Shown here: positions 123 to 10,347 of the stretch, piece after piece
How the letters are laid out: every line of letters starts with the position of its first letter
How positions within the stretch are numbered: position 1 is the first letter of the stretch
Virus record (IMG/VR): IMGVR_UViG_2663762992_000009
Source of the DNA: a virus
Lineage: Duplodnaviria > Heunggongvirae > Uroviricota > Caudoviricetes
Strand: one strand, 5' to 3'
DNA length: 28,397 bases
Notes under the pieces: model-generated
Database searches by the model: none
What the model saw: the letters and a program-made list of their open reading frames with translations, nothing else
Told to the model about the DNA's origin: nothing
Program-made: the position numbers and the translations under genes

Positions 123-737
123 TCACGACCGCAAACAGGCTACCTCACGCCCCATAACCAGAGGAGAAACACCCGTCATACCATTAGCAATACGCGAACG
201 GATATGTAACATGTCCTCCTCCCGGATAGTCCGGGTTGCCCCGCCCGGGCGCGGATCGTTGTAGATGAACTGATACCCACCCGCACTGTCCCGCTGAATT
301 TTCACCCTCTCGGGTATCAGTGGTATCAGGGAAGTTATGCGCCTGCCGGTACGGTCAATCTCAGCAAAGGCATTACCACGCAACAGCAGCCCGGCCATCA
401 TGACTTCCCAGAACTCTACCGCTGTCATATCAGCATTGGGCTGATGATGCAGAAGTTCATATAACGGATGGTCTCGCGCAGCTTTCCGCCCGGCCTCCGT
501 TCGCTCATAAAATCCCAGCGGCAGTGTGGCCACCGTCTGTGACAGCAGATTTACGCAGGCCCACACCGCCGAAAGCTGTGTGGCCTTGCTCTCGCTCACC
601 GTGACGCCCGACGCTGTCTCAGCGCCGGAGTAAGCCTGTAAAAATTCACCGTTCGTCAGAGACAAAGGTACCCCCAGCCACCGGAGCAGGGCACCTTTCA
701 TCCGGCCAGGTTTTCTGGATTTATTCATAGGCTTCAC
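123..737 (-). CDS. phage portal protein (HK97-like), N-terminal 204 codons; frame appears to continue toward position 1 in another frame
   Basis: ORF track 204 aa; sequence has portal-like character ([10 protein letters not shown] region) and sits directly downstream of the large terminase. Translating the minus strand of 1-140 in a second frame still gives protein-like sequence ([19 protein letters not shown]...), so the stop at 123 looks like a frameshift or sequencing error. Confidence 0.75.
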
Positions 738-4267: not shown

Positions 4268-4513
4268 GTGAGAAAGTTAATCTGTCTAATTTCGTTCGTT
4301 GCAACATGCGGATTCGGGTATCAGGCATACCAGCATCATGGACTGGCTTCTCTACTGGCTTTCTTAGTCAGCTTAGGGGCTTTTCTAACTGCTGTAGCCA
4401 ACTTAATAAGTGACAAGAAGAAGTCATCCTCTATAAGCCAAGTGATTGGTAATAACTCTTCAGGAATACAAGTCAGTGGTAATTTAACCATTAATGAAAA
4501 GGACAAAAAATGA
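4268..4513 (+). CDS. small membrane protein (two predicted TM helices), first gene of AT-rich moron
   Basis: GTG start with GAGAG about 9 nt upstream; hydrophobic segments LICLISFVATCGF and LASLLAFLVSLGAFLTAVANLI; visibly AT-rich; stop overlaps the next start (ATGA). Confidence 0.5.
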   Translation: MRKLICLISFVATCGFGYQAYQHHGLASLLAFLVSLGAFLTAVANLISDKKKSSSISQVIGNNSSGIQVSGNLTINEKDKK

Positions 4514-5418
4514 GTCTTTTCGATCATAAGTCGGGTCAACATGTCGGAGATGGTTCTACCGCAATCCAAGTAACCGGTGATGCTATCATTGGTAATACTA
4601 CTACTGAAGTAGTTACTATCTGTGAATTAGTAGTTCAAGCACAAATGGCTTCTTTAAAAGAGGAAGCATATAAACTTGTAAACCAACGAGCGATAGAATT
4701 TGGTAATCAGATTGCAGCTAAACTTTCTAGTGATCTTGATCATAAATTAAAAGAGAAATTATCCGACCCTGACATTCAATATTCGATGAACCAAGCTGTA
4801 ACTCAGGTGGCTCGAAAAGGATTTGATGAAAAATCGGAGTTACTTAAAGAGCTAATCGTTTCTAAAATTCAAACTGAAGAAGAAGAGGATAGTATAGTTA
4901 TAGATCACGCTCTTGAGGTGACATCTAAATTAACAACAAACGACATTAAATTTCTCTCTCTAATATATTACCTCAGAAACATAAATAAGATACGAAACGG
5001 TATTAACATGACAGCTCTTGCTGAAAGAAATGAAACTCACTTTGGATTAATTGGCTTTACCGTAGAGCAAAACCATTCAGCCCACAAAGAATACTATGCT
5101 CGCTATGATATTGATTACATTAAATTCTTAGATAAAATAGAGTCTTTGAGAAAAATAAACATTGATCTCCTCAGCTTAAAAGGCGTTATCTTCACAGACA
5201 AGCAATACATAACAAACTATCAAGACCTACTTGAAAAAAGGACTGGAATCACCAGCTTTGAAAGCGATGAGATGTTCTTTGAAACATTTCCTGCTTTAAA
5301 GTTAACTCTAGATGCATTTGGCGTATCGACCATAAATGACTTTAATTCATATGTTTTAAATCCAATTGGCAACCTGATTGCTCAAAACTTTCTTCGGGCT
5401 CGGAACTTCCTTCAATAG
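4510..5418 (+). CDS. hypothetical 302-aa protein, second gene of AT-rich moron (candidate defence/abortive-infection or conversion function)
   Basis: Long ORF in an AT-rich segment; AAGGA RBS about 8 nt upstream; translationally coupled to the upstream small ORF; opposite orientation to the flanking late genes; no family recognised. Confidence 0.7.
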   Translation: MSLFDHKSGQHVGDGSTAIQVTGDAIIGNTTTEVVTICELVVQAQMASLKEEAYKLVNQRAIEFGNQIAAKLSSDLDHKLKEKLSDPDIQYSMNQAVTQVARKGFDEKSELLKELIVSKIQTEEEEDSIVIDHALEVTSKLTTNDIKFLSLIYYLRNINKIRNGINMTALAERNETHFGLIGFTVEQNHSAHKEYYARYDIDYIKFLDKIESLRKINIDLLSLKGVIFTDKQYITNYQDLLEKRTGITSFESDEMFFETFPALKLTLDAFGVSTINDFNSYVLNPIGNLIAQNFLRARNFLQ

Positions 5419-5597: not shown

Positions 5598-6170
5598 TCA
5601 TTTAAAATGATTTACAACCTTAACGTCTCTGTCCTTTAACTCCATAATTTTTCCTAGTTGCTTGCGTTCCAACTCAATTTTACTGATACCAGTCAGTTGG
5701 TTATTCGCCTTCTCAATAGTAGCCAGCAGCGGCCCGATCCAGAGAACAGCCTGGCAGTATGTCAGAGAGCTGGCGGTAATGGTGTCACCACCGGCTGCAT
5801 CAGCGTTCCGGGGATCGGGGTACATTGCGCTGGCACGTAAACGGTACGCGTGGTCGAGCAGCCCGTCAGCGATATCAGCAGGAACAGGCAAATCACAGGT
5901 TTTTTCACGACGGAGTATCTCCCGGTATTCAATAACTGTTTTTTCGGAACCGGCATCAATCAGGGAGTTAAGGCGGCTGGTATTATCAGCAACCTGATTA
6001 AACCGGTTAAAGTTGAAAACCTGAGTGGCGATAACCTGCCCCTGTAGCGCGTTATCATTGCGAAGGATCCGGTTATCACTTTCTGATACAGCAAGGTCGG
6101 CCCGGCTGAATACCAGCATAACAACCACAACCAGGAACGAAATTATTGCGATAATCGTTATACGGTTCAT
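5598..6170 (-). CDS. Rz: i-spanin Rz
   Basis: N-terminal TM helix (ITIIAIISFLVVVVMLV) followed by a coiled-coil periplasmic domain; last gene of the lysis cassette; contains an embedded +1-frame lipoprotein ORF. Start placed at the ATG at 6170. Confidence 0.8.
   Translation of the reverse strand: MNRITIIAIISFLVVVVMLVFSRADLAVSESDNRILRNDNALQGQVIATQVFNFNRFNQVADNTSRLNSLIDAGSEKTVIEYREILRREKTCDLPVPADIADGLLDHAYRLRASAMYPDPRNADAAGGDTITASSLTYCQAVLWIGPLLATIEKANNQLTGISKIELERKQLGKIMELKDRDVKVVNHFK
5762..5908 (-). CDS. Rz1: o-spanin Rz1 (lipoprotein embedded in Rz, +1 frame)
   Basis: Embedded ORF with signal peptide and lipobox (LISLTGCS) and a Pro-rich C-terminus. Start placed at GTG 5908 with GGGAGA 9 nt upstream; the ORF-track start at 5959 is an alternative. 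Confidence 0.65.
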   Translation of the reverse strand: MKKPVICLFLLISLTGCSTTRTVYVPAQCTPIPGTLMQPVVTPLPPAL

Positions 6171-6174
6171 GGCT

Positions 6175-6312
6175 CTACCACCAGCGAATCGCCACAATCA
6201 GGCGCGCAATACCATACAGCACAACCGTCAACGCCACAGCCCGTATAGCCCATGCCGTAGCACTACTGATTTCTTTTGTTAACGGAGCATCTATTTCAAG
6301 GCCGTTTTTCAT
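6175..6312 (-). CDS. possible small membrane protein within lysis cassette
   Basis: Short ORF with a hydrophobic C-terminus (AIRAVALTVVLYGIARLIVAI) between the endolysin and Rz; overlaps the Rz start; the start codon is uncertain. Confidence 0.3.
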   Translation of the reverse strand: MKNGLEIDAPLTKEISSATAWAIRAVALTVVLYGIARLIVAIRWW

Positions 6313-6400
6313 AGTCAACCTCAACAGAATTCGTTTATACTTCCTCACAGGGAACACACCTCCCTATACATAATTTCTCCCTTGCTTTCCTCAAGGTGCA

Positions 6401-6450
6401 GAAACAGAAAACCCCGACTGTTTGCCGCAATCGGGGTTTTCGCTTTTAAT
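6401..6450. terminator. bidirectional rho-independent terminator-like hairpin between endolysin and Rz
   Basis: AAAACCCCGA (6408-6417) pairs with TCGGGGTTTT (6431-6440) around a 13-nt loop; T-rich tracts follow the stem on both strands. Confidence 0.5.
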
Positions 6451-6460
6451 ACACGCTCAC

Positions 6461-6883
6461 TTAACCCGCCAGTTCGAGCGCGCGGATAAACGTATCAAAG
6501 CTGTATGGCTGGCTACCGTTCTCGTGCTTAATAATGGCCTGCAACAGCTTCATCATGAAACGACTGTCACTGGTATCAATGCGCTGGTCGGGAGTAACAC
6601 CCGTCGCCTGAGCCACGTTGTTGATATACGCCAGCGTGTTGTTCTCGTTCGGCGGCGCCCAGCGTTTAATAATGCCGGTAACCGTGTTCAGCCCGTGCTT
6701 ACGCTGGTAATTGCGCAGGATGATGATCATCGCCCGGATACCATACTCAGGCGTAGTGAACTGGCAGAATGATTTATCAGTGCGCTGTGCTTTGGGTACC
6801 AGGCCCTGCCACTCATCACCCCACCGGATATTGCCGGGGTTGTTGTTGCGGATCCCGCGAGAAATTTTACTGGTTCTCATCAT
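6461..6883 (-). CDS. putative endolysin (muramidase-like), assigned mainly by position
   Basis: 140-aa ORF immediately after the holin, start overlapping the holin end; soluble, no TM segment; motif RNNNPGNIR. No similarity to lambda R or T4 lysozyme recognised by eye. Confidence 0.55.
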   Translation of the reverse strand: MMRTSKISRGIRNNNPGNIRWGDEWQGLVPKAQRTDKSFCQFTTPEYGIRAMIIILRNYQRKHGLNTVTGIIKRWAPPNENNTLAYINNVAQATGVTPDQRIDTSDSRFMMKLLQAIIKHENGSQPYSFDTFIRALELAG

Positions 6884-7202
6884 TTATCCCTGCCCGTTTT
6901 TTAAGCGCACTGATGGCAATTTCACGTAATTTATCCACGCCGACGAAGCCAATCACGCCACCGACAAAGGGTGATATCGATACAGGAAGGCCAAACGCAT
7001 CCAGCGCACTGGTGATACATAAAGAAAGGGCGCCACAAAGGACGCCCTCAAGCCATTTATTTTTTCGCGTGACGCCATCGTATATCAGGCGGGCATAAGC
7101 AATGAGTCCGGCCATTGATGCCCCCAGTAACTGGGGCCACGCATTTTTGAGTCCGGTCAAAACCGCCGCCCAGAATTCAGGGTTTTTGTCATTCATTTTC
7201 AT
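6867..7202 (-). CDS. class I holin, lambda S-like, with dual-start motif
   Basis: C-terminal region resembles lambda S as recalled (LDAFGL ... GFVGVDKLREIAISALKKRAGINDENQ); hydrophobic helices; starts MKM (ATG at 7202 and 7196), like the lambda S107/S105 dual start; SD-like GGTGAGG upstream. Confidence 0.8.
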   Translation of the reverse strand: MKMNDKNPEFWAAVLTGLKNAWPQLLGASMAGLIAYARLIYDGVTRKNKWLEGVLCGALSLCITSALDAFGLPVSISPFVGGVIGFVGVDKLREIAISALKKRAGINDENQ

Positions 7203-7243
7203 ATACCTCACCCCCGGTTTCCGGATGGTGCTGTGTACTGGTG

Positions 7244-7268
7244 AAAAAATTCAGCCTTCCGGGCTGAG
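7244..7268 (-). terminator. candidate intrinsic terminator between tRNAs and holin (minus strand)
   Basis: Hairpin TCAGCC (7251-7256) / GGCTGA (7262-7267) with a 5-nt loop; on the minus strand it is followed by a run of six U. Confidence 0.45.
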
Positions 7269-7467
7269 TATGCTGCAGATCTGAATACGAAAAAGGCCAC
7301 GCAAATGCGCAGCCTTTATAACGCGAGTTTTATTATTCGGAGGCACTCCATCCAACAAACCACCCATGGTTGCCAGGATTTTAACGGAGTGCTTTTGGAT
7401 GAGCGCTGGACCGGAAGGTCAGTATTTTTACACAGCAATTTTGCAAAAAGCAGCGCCCATTCAAAAC

Positions 7468-7543
<76 letters not shown>

Positions 7544-7546
7544 TTT

Positions 7547-7623
7547 TGGTGGCCCTTGCTGGACTTGAACCAGCGACCTGGCGATTATGAGTCGCACGCT
7601 CTGACCAACTGAGCTAAAGGGCC
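7547..7623 (-). tRNA. tRNA with CAU anticodon (Ile2-lysidine type or Met)
   Basis: Full cloverleaf on the minus strand: acceptor GGCCCTT/AAGGGCC, D-arm GCTC/GAGC, anticodon loop CTCATAA, T-arm GCTGG-TTCAAGT-CCAGC, CCA end; closely resembles the E. coli ileX sequence as I recall it. Confidence 0.85.
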
Positions 7624-7630
7624 ATGACGC

Positions 7631-7737
7631 TGCGGTGCCGGACCGCTATTATTCCGGTAGATTGCGCGCTGATACACAATCTGCTTCGCGAAAATTCTCC
7701 ATTTCAGCAAGCCTCAACGCTAGTGAGATTCACCGCA
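7631..7737. repeat. repeat unit A (~100-nt element with complementary termini TGCGGTG...CACCGCA)
   Basis: Shares 5' end tgcggtgccgg and 3' end cgctagtgagattcaccgca with the units at 8860-8963 and 9074-9166; abuts the tRNA-Ile gene. Confidence 0.7.
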
Positions 7738-8014: not shown

Positions 8015-8449
8015 CTAATTCCATACAGTTCCCCTGGCGACCGAATAACGCCCTGCCCCCAGTAATGCAACTGACAGAGAGCCAACAAAAAAATACACCA
8101 GGCTTTCTATTCCCCACGCGCCAGTACTTTCGAGCATCCATGTTTCCTCTACCCCCACCAGAAGCCAGGCCACAATCATTGTAAAAGCCAGCAACAGTGC
8201 TGCGGGGCGAGTAAGAACCCCAAGAATAATCAGGCCTGGAGCCAAAACCTCTCCCACAATTGCTCCGTATGCGAAAAATCCAGGTAAGCCGTTAGCTATA
8301 AGCATGCCGCTAATACCTTCAACTCCTGCAAAGAGCTTATGCAAACCATGAAATAACATCAGCCCACCAACAGCAAGTCTTAACAGGAACTTACCAAAGT
8401 CAGCATGGGATAAGATCTGGTTAATTTTATTCAGTACGATAGTAATCAT
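8015..8449 (-). CDS. DoxX-family inner-membrane protein (cargo gene in the Q-to-lysis region)
   Basis: 144-aa ORF with four hydrophobic segments and a DoxX-like N-terminus (FGKFLLRLAVGGLMLFHGLHKL); GGAG SD 9 nt upstream of the ATG at 8449. Confidence 0.7.
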   Translation of the reverse strand: MITIVLNKINQILSHADFGKFLLRLAVGGLMLFHGLHKLFAGVEGISGMLIANGLPGFFAYGAIVGEVLAPGLIILGVLTRPAALLLAFTMIVAWLLVGVEETWMLESTGAWGIESLVYFFVGSLSVALLGAGRYSVARGTVWN

Positions 8450-8859
8450 TGTTCATCACTCCAAGTAAAAAAGGAATGAGAAAAACAAATCACCAGCAGG
8501 CTACAACAGTCAATCTGTTCGGCTGTAAATCACAAACAAGTTAAATAGACTGTTAACACCCACCCTACCTGAATTATTACGCCAAAAAAGGAGATAAAGC
8601 GATAAATCTTATTAGCATGTAACTATTGTTCAACTCAATAGAGCCCATACACTAAGTTTTATTGCCCCTAATAATCCGATGACCAACAGAATGATGCTAA
8701 TTAAGAATACCTGATTCGTTGTAAATCTGATACTGCGTAAATATGCCTTTAGAGCATTAGCAGTTCTGTATTTATTCTGCATTTTCCCGCTCAGAAATCA
8801 CATCAATGACCAATTTAAAAGTAGAGCCCGAATAATCTATCTCCACGACCCGATATGAG

Positions 8860-8963
8860 TGCGGTGCCGGTCGCAACCCGGTGAAACGTATCCATGGTGT
8901 GGTGCAATACATACTGGCAGAATGAATAGTGCCACACCCCTCACGCTGGTGAGATTCACCGCA
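8860..8963. repeat. repeat unit B
   Basis: Same conserved termini as unit A. Read on the minus strand it shows a 7-bp terminal helix, a D-arm-like hairpin (CTCA-CCAGCG-TGAG), a long central hairpin and a T-arm-like hairpin (CCGG-GTTGCGA-CCGG). Confidence 0.7.
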
Positions 8964-9073
8964 GGAGGTAACGTATAAACGGCAGGTGCTTTAGATCAAG
9001 CTTTTTATCATGTCGGCGAAATGAAAAAGGGCTCACCGAAGTGAGCCCTGAATTACCGCCGTTTTCAATTTGC

Positions 9074-9807: not shown

Positions 9808-10347
9808 TCACACATTCCTATCAATGGAATCCCGTAGCGGGATATAAAGCATGTATTCAACCATATACAGCCATTGGTCGATTCGTCGCCGACAGGTAAC
9901 ATAACTCCAGTCAGGGTATTTTTCCTGAAGTTTCTCAGCTATCTTTCGCTTACTCATTCCCCGTCCTTCGTAACGCTGGTGAAGCAGTGCCTTTAGTGCG
10001 GGATGATCTGCCAGAACTGCCCCGATAACCCGGTCGATTATCAGTGCTTCAGAATCAGTACAGTATGCAAGGTAGCTTTTCTGCTTACCGTTCAATATCT
10101 CACGTAAAAATTGCTCCAGTTCAGGCCTGGTAGTGCCTGATTTTTTAAGCAGCCTGAGCGCATCACGGGCGCCTGTGCGGGTGATTTTTTTACTGACCAG
10201 CAACTGATTGAAGATATTTCCCGGATGGCCATTTCCGATATAAGACCAGCGCCCCCACATTCTTAGCTTTCCCTGTACCCATAACGTCTCAAGCGTAGTG
10301 AGACGAAGCATTTCACCAGGTTTACCTGTCGTGACCGGGTAGATCAT
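9808..10347 (-). CDS. late-gene antiterminator Q-like protein
   Basis: 179-aa ORF immediately upstream of the tRNA/lysis region and after the nin genes; basic C-terminal region with HTH-like character (KRKIAEKL ... RRRIDQWL); start overlaps the upstream gene's stop. Confidence 0.75.
   Translation of the reverse strand: MIYPVTTGKPGEMLRLTTLETLWVQGKLRMWGRWSYIGNGHPGNIFNQLLVSKKITRTGARDALRLLKKSGTTRPELEQFLREILNGKQKSYLAYCTDSEALIIDRVIGAVLADHPALKALLHQRYEGRGMSKRKIAEKLQEKYPDWSYVTCRRRIDQWLYMVEYMLYIPLRDSIDRNV

Follow-up and report, generated by a model that had tools for sequence, protein, structure and literature searches.

A predicted dual-start holin gene of the lambda S family at the head of a lambdoid lysis cassette

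Introduction

The dual start of the holins of the lambda S family is textbook knowledge, and the gene described here adds an ordinary member to that family. For phage lambda, it is known that the RNA structure sdi controls initiation at both start codons of the S gene and sets how much holin is made relative to antiholin (PMC3359269). The long form, which is the antiholin, is held off until the membrane depolarises and then aids hole formation (PMC6116005, PMC9636201). A lambda phage that produces S105 alone is viable and still lyses its host efficiently, just 5-10 minutes earlier (PMC6116005). A dual start is also present in the S21 pinholin of phage 21 (S21-71/S21-68), in which an extra positive charge at the N-terminus makes the longer product the antiholin (PMC9636201). 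However, S21 is a class II protein with two transmembrane segments, which forms small heptameric pinholes and has a SAR endolysin as its partner. In a literature search for the holins of the Gifsy type, no experimental study of the dual start was found, and one phage record of a close relative is already annotated as 'holin/antiholin component S'.

Here, we compare these systems with a locus in a stretch of viral DNA of 28,397 nucleotides (IMG/VR record IMGVR_UViG_2663762992_000009), which is hereafter called the window. The window holds a lambdoid prophage and contains genes for an integrase, a NinB-like protein, a Q-like antiterminator, an HNH protein and the small and large terminase subunits. 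The gene at 7202..6867 on the minus strand is predicted to encode a class I holin of this prophage, a member of the lambda S family. This protein is neither homologous to S21 nor built like the pinholin, and the endolysin of the window is devoid of a SAR segment.

The holin gene and its start codons

The following features define the gene and its 5' end:

6867 to 7202, minus strand: S-like holin/antiholin gene (PF05106, PHROG 126, TIGR01594 and BLASTP against lambda S)
7202 to 7200, minus strand: ATG1 (sequence read)
7199 to 7197, minus strand: Lys2 codon AAA (sequence read)
7196 to 7194, minus strand: ATG3 (sequence read)
7194 to 7202, minus strand: dual-start motif ATG-AAA-ATG, encoding Met1-Lys2-Met3 (sequence read and conservation)
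7212 to 7206, minus strand: GGTGAGG, located 5' of ATG1 (sequence read)
6869 to 6867, minus strand: stop codon TAA of the holin gene (sequence read)

Read directly from the minus strand, the transcript runs ...CACCAUCCGGAAACCGGGGGUGAGGUAU AUG AAA AUG AAU GAC..., which agrees with the claim of the initial annotation that two in-frame ATG codons at 7202 and 7196 are separated by a lysine codon. The gene comprises 111 codons, and the two starts correspond to a long form of 111 aa (ATG 7202) and a short form of 109 aa (ATG 7196). Among the 99 ORFs of the window that extend over at least 50 aa from the first ATG to the stop codon, the holin gene is the only one that starts with M-[K/R]-M. As such a start is expected by chance with a frequency of about 0.002 per ORF in random sequence, its occurrence is moderately improbable, which is suggestive when taken alone. 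It becomes convincing because the motif is conserved in frame in the relatives and in lambda S.

The bounds of the gene had initially been given as 6867-7211. The list of ORFs contains the same interval since it opens each frame at the first GTG, ATG or TTG after a stop codon; the GTG at 7211 is a boundary of the ORF finder only, and the true start is at 7202. Translation that also or instead begins at this GTG would yield a 114-aa form starting with M-R-Y-M-K-M and carrying one additional positive charge, and the gene would have three products. The codon is in frame and opens the listed ORF, and the relatives of the Gifsy-like subclade have an in-frame GTG as well (GTG AGG CTT ATG). However, this codon falls within the conserved Shine-Dalgarno-like run GGTGAGG and is base-paired in the hairpin described below. 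Moreover, apart from the loop GGAAA, there is no purine-rich site at a useful distance on its 5' side, and the family profiles and the gene callers begin at Met1 or Met3. In one subclade of the relatives (L045 type), in which the sequence GTGAGGCT-ATG leaves 8 nt from the GTG to ATG1, the codon is out of frame and thus not a conserved start. For these reasons, GTG 7211 was rejected as the true start, and we regard its use as extremely improbable.

Relationship to the S protein of lambda

Profile searches revealed that the gene product covers the models of the lambda holin family from end to end. The Pfam family PF05106 'Phage holin family (Lysis protein S)' (Phage_holin_3_1) was matched with an E-value of 1.9e-37 and 128.1 bits (cut-off 23.8) over profile positions 1-99 of 99, and the NCBIfam equivalog TIGR01594 'phage holin, lambda family' was matched with 132.8 bits (cut-off 55.05) over positions 1-107 of 107. 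PHROG 126 'holin/anti-holin' was also recovered (E 1e-39). A BLASTP comparison with lambda S (sequence from NC_001416) aligned residues 1-111 with residues 1-107 at an amino-acid identity of 29% (E 2e-11). In this alignment, Met-Lys-Met lies on Met-Lys-Met, and a C-terminal KKAG..D..NQ tail is common to both proteins. The initial description of the gene as a lambda-like holin with a start in the style of S107/S105 is thus in accordance with two family models scoring above their cut-offs and with the aligned start.

The two proteins also resemble each other in their overall organisation. Like lambda S, the protein of the window has three hydrophobic stretches in the Kyte-Doolittle profile and a C-terminal tail with basic and acidic residues, which has a net charge of +1. 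Its single cysteine aligns with that of lambda and is conserved without exception in 21 family members. The N-terminal segment carries a net charge of 0 when counted from Met1 and of -1 when counted from Met3, which is identical to the values for S107 and S105. An AlphaFold2 model, which was calculated from an alignment of 19 sequences and has a low confidence (pLDDT 63), was used for the number of helices only and contains three of them (residues 8-41, 49-69 and 77-103). The proteins differ in length, with 111/109 aa in the window compared to 107/105 aa in lambda. By its profile matches and the full-length alignment, the gene is genuinely homologous to lambda S and not a mere look-alike.

Conservation of the dual start among the relatives

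Proteins designated 'phage holin, lambda family' were found by protein searches in Salmonella, Citrobacter, Klebsiella, Kosakonia, Dickeya and Pectobacterium as well as in Photorhabdus, Morganella and Providencia. Their annotations start either at Met1 (111 aa) or at Met3 (109 aa). An identical holin gene with the same neighbourhood is present on 18 contigs from public assemblies, including metagenome assemblies and a contig of 44.5 kb, and an identical copy occurs in an IMG/VR contig. In the genome collection, no match reached 100%, and the best was Citrobacter meridianamericanus (94%). The prophage holins of Salmonella (e.g. STM1028.2n), Citrobacter and Kosakonia are 83-94% identical at the protein level and share with the window ATGAAAATG, the GGTGAGG run and the outer hairpin stem CACC/GGUG. 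At the DNA level, the holin genes of the Salmonella prophages Gifsy-1 and Gifsy-2 and of phage SEN34 matched with 83% identity in megablast, over the window positions 7229..6865 only, that is, from the hairpin to the stop codon. These relatives differ from the window in the inner stem of the hairpin (CCGA/UCGG or CGC/GCG instead of CCGG/CCGG) and in the upstream ribosome-binding site (GGAGGU instead of GGGGGU).

For a broader comparison, 80 viral loci and 80 genome loci were fetched and their starts were read at the DNA level. An in-frame ATG-AAR-ATG is present at the aligned N-terminus in 118 of 159 related loci (84 with AAA and 34 with AAG), and also in lambda S. These loci derive from Salmonella, Citrobacter, Kosakonia, Xenorhabdus and Photorhabdus and span 53-100% protein identity, with lambda at 29%. 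Both ATG codons are retained while the residues following Met3 vary (NDKNPEF, NEKTPDF, KENPDLW or PEKHDLL), the lysine codon changes synonymously between AAA and AAG, and the whole upstream sequence differs. The motif is also present in the DNA of loci whose proteins were annotated from Met3, such as the Kosakonia loci L073 and L084 and the locus L170. Furthermore, two variants of the motif were observed: in a Morganella P2-like phage (L171) the start reads M-K-T-M, and in Yersinia (L085) it reads M-Q-D-R-K-M.

The motif is absent in 41 of the 159 loci. Single-start members include some Xenorhabdus and Photorhabdus genes, which begin with MDKQPD and have a stop codon just upstream. In the Salmonella loci L168/L169 (GCA_007525325.1, positions 241..340), the 5' end of a holin gene whose product is 94% identical to that of the window has been replaced. 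There, the gene starts at a lone GTG that overlaps the end of a gene for an HNH/AP2-domain protein, lacks both Met-Lys-Met and the upstream hairpin, and is followed by an endolysin of the same 140-aa type. This locus is a natural single-start allele. The dual start is therefore a motif that is conserved well beyond chance and yet dispensable in the family, which fits the viability of lambda producing S105 alone.

A predicted hairpin and two Shine-Dalgarno-like sites precede the starts

The region upstream of ATG1 contains three RNA elements:

7209 to 7230, minus strand: sdi-like hairpin CACC-A-UCCGG-AAA-CCGGG-GGUG with 9 bp and one bulged A (RNA fold)
7210 to 7215, minus strand: upstream Shine-Dalgarno-like site GGGGGU (anti-Shine-Dalgarno duplex of -9.2 to -9.9 kcal/mol)
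7205 to 7209, minus strand: downstream Shine-Dalgarno-like site GAGGU (anti-Shine-Dalgarno duplex of -6.6 to -6.9 kcal/mol)

When a segment of 41 nt ending at ATG3 was folded, the hairpin 7230..7209 had a minimum free energy of -14.1 kcal/mol (z = -2.99), and two of 200 shuffled sequences folded as well. The Shine-Dalgarno-like sites were found by a sliding duplex calculation with the anti-Shine-Dalgarno sequence. The stronger site, GGGGGU, is located 7 nt before ATG1, lies wholly in the 3' arm of the hairpin and has a probability of being unpaired of about zero. The weaker site, GAGGU, lies mostly outside the hairpin. Its distance to ATG3 is 8 nt, and with a distance of 2 nt it is too close to ATG1. 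The Shine-Dalgarno-like GGTGAGG noted upstream of the gene in the initial annotation is indeed present at 7212-7206, and GGTGAG is invariant in the close clade. However, this run is actually part of two overlapping ribosome-binding elements, of which the upstream one is buried in the hairpin.

Lambda has the same layout (CCCC-UUAUU-GGGGG-UAAGAC-AUG-AAG-AUG). In both cases, 5-6 nt separate ATG1 from the end of the G-rich 3' arm of the hairpin, and this arm includes a Shine-Dalgarno-like site that is spaced for ATG1. The hairpin of the window is longer and more stable than sdi (9 bp; -14.1 compared to -9.7 kcal/mol), the stem of lambda is CCCC/GGGG, and the second ribosome-binding element is UAAG in lambda and GAGGU in the window. 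For lambda, a stem-loop further downstream in the coding region has also been described. Such hairpins were predicted in the coding regions of the window and of lambda (z = -0.8 and -0.9, respectively), and the 110-nt segments folded no better than shuffled sequences.

Except for two Photorhabdus loci, whose upstream sequences folded no better than shuffled sequence, a hairpin was predicted at the same place in most of the relatives carrying the motif and in lambda, and the sequences of these hairpins differ. The stems found in the relatives are CCGA/UCGG, CGC/GCG, CACCCCA/UGGGGUG (Xenorhabdus), GCCGC/GCGG (L170) and CCUCC/GGGGG (Morganella P2-like phage). Thus, at least five stem designs exist across the family, and that of the window is the most stable among the close relatives (at least 80% identical). 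In the close clade, 88.9% of the alignment cells are paired in the hairpin, compared to 33-47% when the partners were slid against each other. Strict covariation in this clade is weak, with only one pair showing a double change and a score no better than that of shuffles, and from a MAFFT alignment RNAalifold recovered no more than the outer 4 bp of the hairpin. Positional covariation is not scorable because the stems of the subclades sit in different registers. For the hairpin, we therefore rely on the fact that independent hairpins recur and on the z-scores of the individual sequences. Taken together, the comparison shows the dual start travelling across the family with an upstream ribosome-binding site that is predicted to be occluded by a hairpin.

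The stability of the hairpin also bears on the question of whether both starts are used. The gene could be a lambda-family holin gene with a single functional start and a Met-Lys-Met that is an inherited relic with no role in timing. The start would then most likely be ATG3 because the free GAGGU is spaced for this codon. As the hairpin exceeds sdi in stability and buries the site spaced for ATG1, initiation at ATG1 could be negligible. The loci without a dual start, including L168/L169, and the efficient lysis by the lambda S105 mutant are in line with this explanation. However, ATG1 and the lysine codon have been kept in 118 loci while the upstream sequence, the stem, the third position of the lysine codon and the following residues have changed, and a neutral relic of two codons is expected to decay or to vanish more often within clades. 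We therefore consider the use of a single start unlikely.

The lysis cassette and its endolysin

The holin gene heads a complete lysis cassette in which it is followed by the genes for an endolysin, a small membrane protein and Rz with an embedded Rz1. The cassette and the elements that are relevant for its expression comprise the following features:

6461 to 6883, minus strand: endolysin, 140 aa (phrog_873 endolysin, E 5e-65; PDB 7q47_A 'Endolysin', E 3e-31)
5598 to 6170, minus strand: Rz-like inner-membrane spanin, 190 aa from ATG 6170 (phrog_214, E 2e-47)
5762 to 5959, minus strand: Rz1-like outer-membrane lipoprotein spanin (phrog_456 Rz-like spanin, E 1e-06)
7251 to 7317, minus strand: two hairpins resembling terminators, 7317..7292 and 7267..7251, in the interval from the tRNA block to the holin gene (pattern scan)
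9808 to 10347, minus strand: Q-like late antiterminator (phrog_753 anti-termination protein Q-like, E 3e-64)

The N-terminus of the endolysin, MMRTSKISRGIRNNNPGN, is hydrophilic and contains no hydrophobic SAR segment. Because an N-terminal membrane segment is absent, the enzyme should be cytoplasmic, and a cytoplasmic endolysin is the situation in which a canonical large-hole holin is needed. Profile searches with the endolysin sequence gave no match in Pfam or NCBIfam. The protein also matches domains in large virion or tape-measure proteins (PDB 9vvp Gp29; phrog_2276 and phrog_7182), and its E. coli relatives in RefSeq are named merely 'structural protein'. Rz1 is embedded inside the Rz gene in a different frame and has the lipobox L-T-G-C, which was read from the sequence. 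The start of Rz at 6170 corresponds to the 190-aa gene call in identical contigs, and the ORF finder lists a TTG start at 6197.

The cassette shares with lambda the Q-dependent position in the late operon, the downstream Rz/Rz1 pair with its embedded arrangement and an overlap of 17 nt between the end of the holin gene and the ATG of the endolysin gene. The same overlap of 17 nt exists in lambda (45493 vs 45509) and in Gifsy-2, and the three endolysins are not all related. The endolysin of the window (phrog_873, similar to PDB 7q47) is unrelated to the lambda R transglycosylase, and the endolysin located downstream in Gifsy is a P22-type lysozyme, which suggests a mosaic joint at the S/R overlap. 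The DNA similarity to Gifsy and SEN34 ends within 2 nt of the holin stop codon (region 6865..6883 of the window). Because the length of the overlap is constant and the similarity stops at the end of the holin gene, the comparison shows that the S/R overlap acts as a recombination joint, at which a common holin module meets endolysin modules that are unrelated to each other. Such a joint and a dual start with an occluded site fit the known lambdoid lysis cassettes.

Lambda differs from the window in the interval between R and Rz, where the window has an additional small membrane ORF (6175..6357, minus strand). It is listed with 60 aa, or 45 aa from ATG 6312, has a C-terminal transmembrane segment and matches phrog_1115/4493 of unknown function. 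A terminator-like, GC-rich hairpin of 14 bp precedes it (6441..6407, minus strand). The ORF may encode an accessory lysis protein. An ORF of 302 aa (4510..5418, plus strand), which runs opposite to the lysis cassette and separates it from the HNH/terminase genes, matches phrog_19542 of unknown function and is annotated with PF28206 Vpar_1526 in identical contigs. This ORF looks like an inserted accessory gene (moron).

The region between Q and the holin gene

The Q-like antiterminator gene is located 2.6 kb upstream of the holin gene, and its product is presumed to activate the late transcript that includes the lysis genes. Polymerase modified by Q would read through the two hairpins at 7317..7292 and 7267..7251. 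The spacer, which distinguishes the window from lambda, carries inserted genes and RNA elements, namely a gene of the DoxX family, a tRNA, a truncated tRNA, sRNA-like repeats and several terminator-like hairpins. The DoxX-family membrane protein gene (8015..8449, minus strand; PF07681 in identical contigs) looks like an inserted accessory gene (moron) of the late operon. An intact tRNA with the anticodon CAT (7547..7623, minus strand) is followed by a truncated second tRNA (7479..7536, minus strand; Rfam RF00005, 44.8 bits, model positions 8-63 of 71). The tRNA block 7479..7623 is about 89% identical to a tRNA-Ile/tRNA-Arg block in the interval between Q and the lysis genes of Stx-converting phages. 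Because of this similarity, the CAT tRNA may be a lysidine-modified isoleucine tRNA rather than a tRNA-Met. Moreover, a match to the sRNA family STnc100 (Rfam RF02076; 9018..9195, minus strand) was found downstream of the Q-like antiterminator gene with 66.2 bits compared to a gathering score of 47, and it ends at a terminator-like hairpin (9049..9028). Partial copies with lower scores are located further downstream at 8817..8987 and 7631..7737 on the minus strand. The STnc100-like element may represent a duplicated late-leader or prophage sRNA module.

The insertion of about 2.6 kb of material between Q and the holin gene raises the possibility that the prophage is defective and its cassette a silent remnant, in which case the holin would never be expressed for lysis. 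The window also holds only part of the prophage. However, in Stx-type lambdoid phages it is normal for the Q-to-S spacer to be long and to contain tRNAs as well as inserted genes. Furthermore, the ORFs of the lysis cassette are all intact and of full length when compared with the profiles, the genes for the integrase, Q, the HNH protein and both terminase subunits are present, and the gene and its neighbourhood are preserved without change on the 18 public contigs mentioned above. A silent remnant is thus very unlikely.

Proposed mechanism

The gene most likely produces an antiholin of 111 aa from ATG1 and a holin of 109 aa from ATG3, in the style of S107 and S105 of lambda. To judge from the charge shift, the three hydrophobic segments, the cysteine, the non-SAR endolysin and the hairpin, the features that are required by the mechanism of lambda all appear to be present. 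From the comparison with lambda, we infer that both starts are used, that the long form is inhibitory and that the hairpin acts in the direction described below.

Initiation at ATG1 (7202) would give rise to the antiholin beginning with Met-Lys-Met and initiation at ATG3 (7196) to the holin. In the long form, the additional lysine and the additional N-terminal amino group would prevent the first transmembrane segment from entering the energised membrane. This form would bind and neutralise the holin, thereby delaying hole formation. Upon collapse of the membrane potential, it would flip into the membrane and join the active holin, so that lysis would be more sharply timed. Probably, the RNA determines in what proportion the two products are made. 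The stronger site GGGGGU, with its spacing for ATG1, would be locked in the 3' arm of the hairpin 7230..7209, and the weaker GAGGU, which is spaced for ATG3, would be mostly free. Because the hairpin restricts the site spaced for ATG1, the holin form should predominate. For lambda, Blasi et al. are said to have observed in 1989 that destabilising sdi favours Met1.

Implications for the family

The locus should be annotated as a holin/antiholin gene of the lambda family that starts at 7202, with an alternative start at 7196, and not at the GTG at 7211. In this respect, public annotations of close relatives conflict with each other, as forms of 111 aa and of 109 aa both occur. Beyond correct annotation, the importance of the finding is small. 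The locus could be used as a further natural allele in studies on the evolution of lysis timing.

Tentatively, the hairpin and the tandem ribosome-binding sites may also be regarded as an evolvable dial, since Met-Lys-Met has been kept while the stems have been swapped; we consider this interpretation possible, with the odds rather against it. If it is true, each prophage would set its own ratio of antiholin to holin and its own lysis time. Naturally occurring alleles in which a single start has replaced the dual one, such as the GTG allele of Salmonella with its 94% identity, would then represent lineages that have abandoned this control.
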